A DNA stretch of 64,000 nt. Origin: Candidatus Borrarchaeum weybense. GTDB lineage: Archaea > Asgardarchaeota > Sifarchaeia > Borrarchaeales > Borrarchaeaceae. Made by a program: the position numbers and the translations under genes. The stretch spans positions 1-64,000 of the forward strand of contig JAHQJS010000007.1 in NCBI GenBank assembly GCA_019057385.1, read 5' to 3'. Below are positions 30,802-35,778 of the stretch, in pieces (position 1 is the stretch's first letter; every line of letters begins with the position of its first letter). The notes under the pieces were generated by a model. It was given only the letters and a program-made list of their open reading frames with translations, was not told the origin of the DNA and searched no databases.

Positions 30802-33800
30802 TCACCCCGCTTGAGTTGATCGCCCCGCTCGATGGCGCTCGAGGGCAGGAATATTCAATTCGATACCCTTTGGAACAAATTGATCCATTTGATGCGCTAA
30901 ATACCCTTGTTCATCTGGCCATTCAACTAATAACGTTTCAATGAGGTGTTTTACCCAGTTCTCATTGCATTCTTCTTTTTCAGTAACGACTACGAGCAGA
31001 TTTTGCACTATTGTTTCTCCTTGACTGCCTGTATCTTCTGCTGACACTGTTACCAGTCTAACATAGATGTTCTCACTGGGTTCTTCCAATTTGAACTGGT
31101 CTCTGGTTACTGCCATAGTGTAAAAACTTGTAAGCTTTGTCGGATCCATTATCACACTGCTAAATTCTGTTTGCTCATTGAATACACGAAACTCCTTTAT
31201 TATTGGCCCCATAATGATATCGAACTCAACCAAGAAAATGGCCTTTACGCCAAATTCGGTGGGGTCCACCATTTCAGATACTAAGAAACCTGGCCGCTGG
31301 TATGCTAAACCTAAATCTACCATCTGTGTGACACCTTCAATTTCACTATCTGATTGCAGTTCAGATAATGATGATAGGGGATCGGGTTGAGGAGTACGAA
31401 TAAAGAAGTAGTACATTAGTCCACTGATAGCGCCACATACACCAATTACCGTCACAATACTGAACAATAGTGACATGTCTGAAAGACTTGCTATCAAAGG
31501 CAGATTTAATCCTCCTTGTTGCGCCACTGTAGCCTGGATTTCAATTTCTACTGATTCTTTGATATCGCTTCTGTAAAATATAATACGTATTAGATAATCA
31601 CCATTATCAAATTCTTTCATTGAGAATGTGGCTACACCATATTCATCTGTCTGTATCGTTGTGTAATAGTCACTTTGAGAGAAACTTTGTAATAGCTCTG
31701 AATTTGCATTAACGTTGTTCTCACCGTAACCGTCGATATAAAGATCAACGGAAGTGTTCGACAGCGCTGTACCATCTGTATATTGGAATACAATGGTTAT
31801 AGTGCTATCAGGATTTTCCTGAACATCAATATTTAAGCGTTCACCGACCCTTACCGTTTTTTCAATGGTTTCGACTATAGCATCGGGGATAGAATCAATT
31901 TTGATCTTTAGTTCGTATTCACCCACTTCGTCTGGTGTTATGCTTGTTTGGATAGAGCCATCTTCATCTGTTTTTTCGCTTATCAGCAATACGCCATCGA
32001 AATAAACCCAGACTTTAATTTGAATTGGTTCACCATCGTAGTCCTTAATGGTGACTCTAATATCTAGTGTATCTCCAAGTTCGATTCCAGTATCCACATC
32101 TACGTCAATTTCAGGCGTGTATTTTACCTTCAAAGTTTCAGTCTTTGTCTTATCGTCTGTTACAATCTTAATCTTTTGACTACCTAGTTCATCTTGAACT
32201 CTCAAATTGAGTTCAACTTCGCCATCAATATCTGTTGTATCTTCATCTTGTAATTCCCAGTTTCCATCGATCTCAGCATAGAGTTTTACGTTTATATTGA
32301 CTTGTGGTTCGCCATCATTTGATATTTTCACCTTTACTGTGTGATCTTTACCTTTTTCAACGGTTAAATCGTTTAAGATCTCGATTATAGTTCCCTGTGG
32401 TTCTTCTGGTTCATCTAAAATAGTAGTGCCGTGTTCCACTATGCTTATTCTGACAACACCTTGTCCGTCGTCTTTAGTGGCAACAATCTTGATAATACCT
32501 GCACCAATTTGTGCGTCAGAAGGAATGACGCAGTTTATTGTGACATCACCCGCTTGGATACCAGTTAGTGTAATTCCTTCACCGATCAGCACATCATTAA
32601 GGTACACTTGAACTACAGCATTACCAACACCAAAAAGGGGATTGTCTTTGTCTTTAACTTGGATATAAAGATCAACAACCTCGTTTTGACTATAGGAGTC
32701 ATCTATGTTTGCAATGATATCCATATCGTCTACATACACAGACAATTGAACCGTATCCGAAACACAGTTATGATAATACAGAAACCCTTCAAAGTCTGCA
32801 TAGACCGTTTGCACTTCACTTAATTCGTAGTTAAAGGTAAACTGTAATTCCGCGATCCCCTGAGCATTAGTAATTGTTGATCCTACGATGGTGTCATTAA
32901 GATAGAACACAACAGATTGTCCTGAGATTGGATTTCCTGCCTCATCAAGCAAAGTGGTCTTGAATTTTACAGTATCGCCCTGTGTTACCGATGTTATAGG
33001 ATTGTCCTGTGTATCTGTTACTTCTATGGTTAACGAAGGATTAGAATATACCGTGACGGTTTGTGTGTCAGTATTGGGATCATAGAACCCACTTCCAGAA
33101 AATTCTGCTCGTACACTAACATCTCCAAGTAGATCATTAGTGATTGTCCAATCATAGGTTGCAAATCCGGAACTATTGGTCAATGAACTACCTAGTAATT
33201 GGCTATTAATATAGAAGTATATGGTATAACCTTCTAATGGTAAACCTGCATCGGTTAGCTCTGCAACTAATGTTACCACATCACCCCTATCTCCTTTGGT
33301 TGGTGTGCTTAGTGATAGGGAAGGAGTGGTATAGACCTCTAAATTAGTTGTTCCTGATTGACTAGCATAATAGTAACCAGATCCTGCGAATTCGGCATAG
33401 AACACATGAGTTCCTAATTGATCAGCCGTCCAAATGAACTCACCCATACCAGACGCATCGGTTGTAACAGTAGTCAAGATTGAACCGTTCAAGTAAATCA
33501 CAACGTCGTATCCTACCATTGCGCCATTTTCATCGGTCAATGTCACCGTTATGGTAACGGTATCGCCCTTATCTACGGTTGAATCTGATAACTGAATACT
33601 GACAGAAGTATTTGAATAGACCGTTGTAAAGACATCATTTGAAATATAACCAAAGGCAGGACATTCAACATGAAGAGTCTGCACGCCAAGTAAATCATTT
33701 GTTATTGTCCAGTCGTATGTGGCGAATCCTGAACTGTCTGTCATTGAACTTCCTAAGAGTGTTCCGTTTAGATAGAAGAATATTTCCTCTCCTTCGATGC

Positions 33801-35778: not shown

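Follow-up and report, generated by a model that had tools for sequence, protein, structure and literature searches.

We analyzed bases 1-64000 of contig 7 in the 8-contig, 4.18-Mb assembly of the Asgard archaeon Candidatus Borrarchaeum weybense (this 64,000-nucleotide stretch is referred to as the window) and found a minus-strand gene for a large surface protein whose cytoplasmic tail is predicted to adopt a longin fold with a Gly-Pro (GP) signature. There is little doubt that the overall architecture, consisting of a signal peptide, an Ig-like stalk, one membrane helix and a tail, is real, and the longin fold of the tail is likely on the basis of its structural model. Eukaryotes use the longin fold to dock and switch small GTPases. 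In the arrangement that we propose, the stalk of ~14 Ig-like repeats would be displayed outside the cell, and the GP-motif longin domain would be held at the inner face of the membrane. There, tethered to the membrane, the tail could dock or regulate a small GTPase of the Arf- or Rab-like kind, probably as a homodimer or paired with a soluble paralogue, and the surface protein would fix the membrane site at which the GTPase is recruited or switched. We hold this role of the tail, docking or regulating a small GTPase, to be plausible but tentative.

A preliminary description of the window had outlined a signal peptide, about 13-14 Ig-like repeats, one transmembrane helix and a tail of about 195 residues containing VKAIFLVEFDIIMGPIIK. 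Hydropathy and Pfam analyses agreed with this outline, giving ~14 repeats and a tail of 198 residues after the helix, with VKAIFLVEFDIIMGPIIK at residue 1511 (residues are numbered along the open reading frame (ORF) from GTG 35778, and the signal peptide and the helix were called from hydropathy). The signal-peptide region has a K/R-rich start followed by a hydrophobic core at residues 17-37, where the Kyte-Doolittle value of 2.57 is the maximum of the protein. The transmembrane helix is 96% identical in the related proteins P0002 and P0003 and is directly followed by basic residues, which are R in the window protein and KK or K in its paralogues with laminin G-like (LamG-type) ectodomains. 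The signal peptide and the single helix would thus make the window protein a type I single-pass protein with its tail inside the cell. An external tail, which the preliminary description had named as fatal to its proposal, is not what these features and the basic residues after the helix predict, and, to our knowledge, all known longin domains are cytosolic. N-x-S/T sequons numbered 19 in the ectodomain (13 expected from composition) and 0 in the tail (0.8 expected). The acidic juxtamembrane linker between the helix and the longin domain is 91-98% conserved in orthologues and probably disordered, as judged from its modeling.

The structure of the tail was predicted with AlphaFold2 (AF2) using a 55-sequence alignment (A3), which yielded a mean predicted local distance difference test score (pLDDT) of 75.1 (85-94 in the core) and a predicted template modeling score (pTM) of 0.73, while AF2 on the single tail sequence gave an unusable model with a pLDDT of 41.7. 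The model contained strands at residues 14-23, 27-35, 64-68, 72-83 and 92-103 and helices at residues 43-59, 109-119 and 129-135 (model numbering), arranged in the order β-β-α-β-β-β-α-α. In particular, only a 4-residue helical turn was present before β1, and two helices were present after β5; the C-terminus of the protein lies 23 residues beyond the last helix of the domain. Foldseek against the Protein Data Bank (PDB) revealed SEAC Npr2/3, GATOR1 NPRL2, MglC, LAMTOR, the C-terminal domain of an archaeal Rag-like GTPase and an archaeal longin domain as the top rows, with a probability of ~1. Upon superposition with VIA-align, the VAMP7 longin domain showed a Z-score of 9.6 with a root mean square deviation of 2.7 over 102 aligned residues, followed by Sec22b (Z 9.3), AP sigma and LAMTOR (both Z 9.1), and NPRL2 (Z 8.8), which gave the longest alignment of 116 residues. 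When 48,161 chains were compared exhaustively and without recourse to Foldseek, ranks 1-28 contained longin or roadblock proteins only. A shape search of the ESM Atlas gave template modeling (TM) scores of 0.54-0.58 overall and retrieved Asgard hypothetical proteins, NPRL2 (TM 0.55-0.56) and Avl9/DENND11/LCHN (TM 0.54-0.57); the matches of the Atlas feature search, with scores of 0.82-0.83, were set aside as leads only. The longin part of the longin/uDENN-like label given to the tail in the preliminary description was therefore retained with fair confidence (AF2, Foldseek, VIA-align and Atlas), and the NPRL2 and Avl9/DENND kinship named there reappeared among the structural matches.

The uDENN part of that label did not stand. 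Within A3, the only positions invariant in all 55 sequences were the D of an FD pair and the GP that follows three residues on, and G1524-P1525 formed the first two residues of β2 (model residues 27-28). A Gly-Pro in the loop before β2 or at the first residues of β2 defines the GP motif, which a 2025 survey reported in FLCN, NPRL2, SMCR8, C9orf72 and a class of Asgard longins and found to be missing from FNIP2, NPRL3, adaptins, TRAPP subunits and DENND proteins (PMC12290439). The spacing D-x3-G-P of the tail is the same as that of C9orf72, where the corresponding residues are W33-D34 and G38-P39 (PMC12290439). Since the motif lies at the reported position, the signature groups the tail with the longins of the GTPase-activating protein (GAP) type. 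As judged from its sequence, the tail is not a uDENN domain, because it has no cDENN or dDENN part and carries a motif reported to be absent from DENND proteins.

To define the family of the tail, we compared it with 1.84 billion representative proteins in an exhaustive phmmer search, which returned 5 proteins, and in all of them the match was the C-terminal tail behind a membrane helix in a large protein or protein fragment. The anchored proteins fall into two types. Type A has the Ig-repeat stalk and comprises the window protein, P0002, P0003 and the orthologue of Ca. Borrarchaeum yapensis; type B has DUF2341, Laminin_G_3 and Big domains (the LamG-type proteins) and comprises P0004 to P0006 and a second gene of the source genome (locus L058, 5816-10411). 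The tails of the two types are ~47% identical, with 43 positions invariant across six aligned tails of both types, and the tail is thus a module kept on two different ectodomains. Between P0002 and the window protein, the helix, linker and tail are 93-98% identical, compared with 74% for the ectodomain, and the number of stalk repeats varies among close relatives, as P0002 lacks 570 mid-stalk residues, or ~6 repeats. The orthologue in the metagenome-assembled genome of Ca. B. yapensis has 1054 amino acids, a tail that is 83% identical and the same gene order. A word-index search with A2 added four short fragments and nothing more.

When the source genome and 400 genomes of the phylum were searched with a profile of the tail domain, more distant soluble proteins with the domain at the N-terminus came to light in three lengths. 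The 253-aa form occurs in the genus of the window and in a single genome of the same class, the 437-aa form occurs in this genus as well, and the ~400-aa form occurs in several other families of the phylum. Matches were present in 56 of the 400 genomes, and frames longer than 1000 aa were found only in the genus of the window. Outside the Borrarchaeum genus, the membrane-anchored form was seen on a few metagenome contigs and nowhere else. The soluble relatives matched no Pfam family either, and they lack a motif specific to the tails, W-x-D-x-Q-G-Y-L-x-H-Q-M-D. Two candidates were rejected: the putative membrane-anchored fragment L055 was a truncated 437-aa soluble form, and an origin of the window gene by fusion of neighbors, with the 400-aa soluble family encoded behind giant surface proteins, was dismissed because the upstream genes were small and unrelated.

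The candidate GTPase partner is suggested by the gene neighborhoods of the paralogues. At all 6 loci examined, spread over four genomes of the genus and one of the same class, the 253-aa paralogue lies at most 4 bp downstream of an Arf-like GTPase gene. On two metagenome contigs, a co-directional gene for a Rab-like GTPase begins 52 bp and 19 bp behind the type B receptor gene (L061, receptor 10-2547 and GTPase 2599-3153; L062, receptor 2-1234 and GTPase 1253-1855); these two GTPases are 77% identical to each other. The type B gene of the source genome has a divergent Arf-like GTPase gene 520 bp upstream; GTPase genes thus adjoin the type B paralogue on three of the four contigs with enough context. 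The Arf-like subfamily in question (LLMGPAxAGK, WELGGQ, NKxD) has exactly four members in the source genome, of which two belong to the 253-aa operons, one lies beside the type B gene and one is encoded in the window at 58613-59209. Besides the window member, they lie on contig 7 at 210660-211160 and 436661-437278 and on contig 3 at 144661-145164. At E<=1e-20, the WELGGQ subfamily was confined to six genomes, those of the clade that possesses the 253-aa form and the anchored form; none of the other 394 genomes had a member. When the tail (A3, residues 1-145) was co-folded with the GTPase at 58613-59209, GTP and Mg, the runs scored 0.42, 0.04 and 0.03, against a mark of 0.32, a spread that favors neither binding nor its absence. 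As for the small-GTPase coupling proposed in the preliminary description, the paralogues' neighborhoods speak for it, but the window gene itself has no GTPase neighbor.

Other features of these loci were also observed. The operon with the 253-aa form is present in two copies in the source genome (L005 390-2445, minus strand, contig 7; L006 907-2962, plus strand, contig 3), each encoding an Arf-like GTPase, the 253-aa GP-motif longin and a protein with two B12-binding domains; the GTPases are 83% identical, and the gene for the B12-binding domains overlaps the longin gene by 38 nt. Each operon is a matched pair of GTPase and longin, with a third member that possibly binds cobalamin. A fifth WELGGQ-type GTPase is encoded on contig 40 of the related genome G308 (L065 1356-4940, plus strand), with the gene for a 244-aa protein 4 bp behind it and that for a 748-aa protein next in line; neither protein matched the longin profile A3, and the 244-aa protein may be a divergent partner. 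The orthologue of the Rab-like GTPase in the source genome (63% identity) lies on contig 4 at 1157855-1158397, in a locus at ~1156631-1158396 (L064 6632-8397, plus strand), behind a TPR/SNAP-like protein of 217 aa and an unassigned 138-aa protein, and the 138-aa and 114-aa genes beside it, examined as possible longin relatives, were not. Directly downstream of the LamG-type gene, we found a HEARO RNA (Rfam RF02033, 129.6 bits, E 2.7e-28; L058 10706-10948, minus strand, contig 7 ~442705-442947), which marks a mobile element, occupies the site of the Rab-like GTPase gene on the related metagenome contigs and has no adjoining ORF of at least 120 aa. Beside the same paralogue (L058 11460-17387, minus strand, contig 7 443459-449386) is the gene for a surface protein of at least 1975 aa with Big_3 repeats, a helix at about residue 1611 and a ~345-aa cytoplasmic tail containing a RING-like zinc finger (PF13639, E 8.7e-4) and a DDRGK/winged-helix-like end, making it the second giant surface protein with a eukaryote-like inner domain in the source genome.

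Several results weigh against a GTPase-docking longin tail. The tail matched no Pfam family at E<=1 (Longin PF13774, NPR2 PF06218, Avl9 PF09794 and uDENN were all unmatched), and phmmer searches with the tail and the A3 profile against PDB sequences found nothing significant. The structural Z values were moderate, with longin and roadblock rows tied within Z 1, and the top scores belonged to the longins of SNAREs and adaptors, not to GTPase regulators. At alignment column 120, the soluble relatives of 400 aa and 253 aa have an Arg with 96-100% conservation, whereas the tails have A or L; in the tails, K or R occupies the preceding column, and R1531 in β2 is invariant. There is also no invariant Arg in the β4-β5 loop of the aligned tails, the loop in which we take the arginine finger of NPRL2 and FLCN to lie (NPRL2 Arg78 just before β5). 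Autonomous GAP activity is therefore doubtful, and the tail may instead be the non-catalytic half of a longin pair. At the level of genes, the surface-protein gene of the window has no GTPase neighbor. It is flanked by a divergently oriented helicase gene and, immediately behind its stop codon, by a T-rich stretch, which suggests that it is transcribed on its own. No single partner is indicated, since type B adjoins GTPases of two different kinds, and the co-distribution of WELGGQ GTPases and longins describes a single clade and counts as one observation, not six. A co-duplication of receptors and GTPases was rejected because their identities do not mirror each other: the GTPase at 58613-59209 shares 44% identity with that of the 253-aa operon but 32% with the neighbor of the LamG-type receptor, whereas the tails of the two receptors are mutual closest relatives.

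Some of these points would suit a longin tail that is unrelated to GTPases and forms a dimerization or adaptor-binding module, which would cluster, position or anchor the protein, for example to a cytoskeletal or coiled-coil partner. In SNAREs and adaptor sigma subunits, the longin domain works in this manner, with peptides and other proteins as ligands, and it is the VAMP7, Sec22b and AP sigma/mu longins that head the structural rows. The lone position of the window gene, the missing Arg and the tail-specific motif point the same way, as do the two genes downstream of the receptor gene (27720-30637, minus strand), which encode a Memo-like protein (PF01875, E 8e-84) and a 595-aa coiled-coil protein with ATG16-/crescentin-type matches and keep the same order in Ca. 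B. yapensis. However, the LamG-type paralogue does not have these two neighbors; adaptor, TRAPP and DENND longins reportedly lack the GP signature (PMC12290439); and GTPase genes lie beside the paralogous receptor on most contigs and beside every 253-aa paralogue. We consider such a GTPase-independent module to be possible but unlikely.

The preliminary description had proposed that cell contact is coupled to GTPase signaling, and we regard true outside-in signaling by the surface protein as doubtful. In such a scheme, engagement or clustering of the ectodomains would join the tails, mutually or with the 253-aa or 437-aa paralogues, and the joined domains would complete a GP pocket similar to that of C9orf72-SMCR8 or NPRL2-NPRL3, by which an Arf- or Rab-like GTPase would be switched locally at the membrane. 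Such a scheme would amount to a pathway from a transmembrane receptor to a small GTPase in an archaeal relative of eukaryotes; it is conceivable, although improbable.

The membership of the tail in the longin/roadblock superfamily is well supported by the model, and the choice of longin rests on the order of elements and the extent of the alignments. A roadblock/LC7 (MglB-like) domain or another α/β fold would be compatible with the matches to LAMTOR, the archaeal Rag-like GTPase C-terminal domain and MglC, which at Z 8.3-9.2 were tied with the longin rows. Nevertheless, a roadblock domain has a long N-terminal helix and lacks the last helix (PMC10933270), whereas the tail model, with its short turn before β1 and two helices after β5, follows the longin order. 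Furthermore, the longin alignments spanned residues 13 to ~140 and included both C-terminal helices, whereas the roadblock alignments ended at residues 127-129. We therefore judge a roadblock or other fold to be very unlikely. It is more improbable still that the protein is an ordinary adhesin or sheath protein whose tail is a functionless lineage-specific fusion or an artefact of assembly or gene calling: the restricted occurrence of the anchored form, the adhesin-like variation in repeat number and the last 12 codons, which are unlike those of orthologues, would agree with it, but the same reading frame recurs in at least 7 independent sequences and two paralogues of the source genome, and both the invariant positions shared by tails of two such divergent types and the higher conservation of helix, linker and tail than of the ectodomain stand against it.

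We also compared the window protein with known systems. The GP-motif Asgard longins described as 'Folliculin/SMCR8-type longin' (Traffic 2025, PMC12290439) share with the tail the phylum, the predicted longin fold and the G-P at the start of β2; they are described as soluble and as having an arginine finger, whereas the tail belongs to a surface protein and has no equivalent invariant Arg (the comparison was made by description only). GATOR1 (NPRL2-NPRL3), FLCN-FNIP and C9orf72-SMCR8 likewise combine the longin fold with the GP motif and act on Arf- or Rag-type GTPases at a membrane, but they are soluble, lysosome-recruited heterodimers with DENN or other C-terminal domains and a catalytic Arg, in contrast to the lone longin of the window protein, which is covalently tied to the membrane. 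The longin SNAREs (VAMP7, Sec22b and Ykt6), which include the best structural scores (Z 9.3-9.6), also tether a longin to a membrane anchor on the cytoplasmic side; their order is reversed, with the longin followed by the SNARE motif and a C-terminal anchor, and they have no ectodomain. The window tail has no SNARE heptad region, and its GP motif is reported to be specific to longins of the GAP type (PMC12290439). In the MglA-MglB pair and the bacterial Group 1 Rup neighborhood (PMC4316618), the gene for a small Ras-superfamily GTPase lies beside that of a roadblock/longin-superfamily partner. The Rup partner spans the membrane: an unnamed cytoplasmic domain precedes its helix, and an OmpA domain lies outside (PMC4316618). 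It is analogous in logic to the window protein. MglB is a soluble roadblock protein. The window gene itself is not beside a GTPase gene, and no sequence relation of the window protein to MglB or the Rup membrane protein was found. Bacterial adhesins of the invasin/intimin type have long stalks of Big_1, Big_3_5 and Invasin_D3 domains with a variable repeat number, similar to the window protein, but they have a β-barrel or short anchor and no folded cytoplasmic domain.

The literature already describes longin domains in Asgard archaea and reports GTPases fused to longin or roadblock domains. A structural study of the cultured Asgard species states that its GTPase genes generally do not share operons with longin genes and that operons are no help in matching regulators to GTPases, and it mentions no membrane-anchored forms (PMC10933270). 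Full-text searches of the Asgard literature revealed no description of an architecture joining an Ig-like or other surface protein, a transmembrane helix and a longin domain. What appears to be new is that an Asgard GP-motif longin serves as the predicted inner tail of a type I surface protein, a combination confined to the Borrarchaeum group. Asgard archaea have dozens of small GTPases as well as longin and roadblock proteins, and the wider question is which regulator serves which GTPase, and where; the close relatives of the window protein supply matched longin-GTPase gene pairs that are directly testable. If the tail does regulate a GTPase, the coupling of a surface protein to a small GTPase would predate eukaryotes, and the longin class thought to be ancestral to FLCN, GATOR1 and C9orf72-SMCR8 would include a membrane-bound member in archaea. 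Otherwise, the protein would still be an Asgard surface protein with a folded, eukaryote-like cytoplasmic domain, similar to the neighbor of the LamG-type paralogue with the RING-like tail.

The coordinates of the features are listed in Table 1.

Table 1. Features of the surface-protein gene and the candidate partner GTPase gene in the window.
Feature	Residues	Position	Strand	Basis and remarks
Surface-protein gene		30802..35760	-	1652 aa from ATG 35760; start set by P0002 alignment
Signal peptide	7-41	35656..35760	-	Hydropathy; likely cleavage between ARA and E
Ectodomain, ~14 Ig-like β-sandwich repeats of ~95 aa	42-1416	31531..35655	-	Pfam and repeat seed search
25-aa motif, copy 1, LLGSSMTDSSGFATYDWTITNDLLG	674-698	33685..33759	-	
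25-aa motif, copy 2	861-885	33124..33198	-	Identical to copy 1 at 23/25 residues (protein) and 57/75 bases (DNA)
Transmembrane helix	1436-1459	31402..31473	-	Sole hydrophobic segment besides the signal peptide; Kyte-Doolittle 2.26
Acidic, Ser-rich juxtamembrane linker	1460-1505	31264..31401	-	Low pLDDT, single-sequence model
Predicted cytoplasmic longin-fold domain	1506-1635	30874..31263	-	AF2 model and structure-search matches
F-D-x3-G-P signature, end of β1 to start of β2	1519-1525	31204..31224	-	A3 alignment
C-terminal 12 residues, ERHRAGRSTQAG		30805..30840	-	G+C-rich replacement after ...IPAL, per DNA alignment
Arf-like WELGGQ GTPase, candidate partner		58613..59209	-	Pfam Arf E 1.8e-12; no longin neighbor

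The ectodomain was matched in tandem by Pfam Big_3_5 (E 2.5e-62; 9 stretches, 207.9 bits with a cut-off of 35.5) and Big_1 (E 1.4e-47; 10 stretches, 160.1 bits with a cut-off of 34.9), and Invasin_D3 and the macroglobulin-type β-sandwich MG4 also matched along residues 42-1416. A phmmer search seeded with a single repeat found 13 units, and the MG4 match covered the gap at residues 1148-1213, bringing the count to ~14. Two of the repeats contain the near-identical 25-residue stretches that the preliminary description had taken as a sign of recent duplication. The likeness of the two stretches is real (23 of 25 residues), but recent duplication is not supported, because their DNA differs at 18 of 75 positions and the whole repeats that hold them are identical at only 54% of residues and 65% of bases; a DNA repeat search also found no long repeat at these two repeats. 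On the sequence evidence, the pair is a case of motif conservation.

The minus-strand ORF at 30802-35778 has 1658 codons from GTG 35778 and encodes one protein. Its G+C-rich end, CTCGAGCGCCATCGAGCGGGGCGATCAACTCAAGCGGGGTGA (30802-30843), lies in surroundings of 35-40% G+C and is not found in two orthologues, which end with L or LL (...IPALL). The true start is probably ATG 35760, because the orthologues begin at a Met that corresponds to ORF residue 7 (MIFEKLRS in the window protein and MTFEKLRN in P0002).

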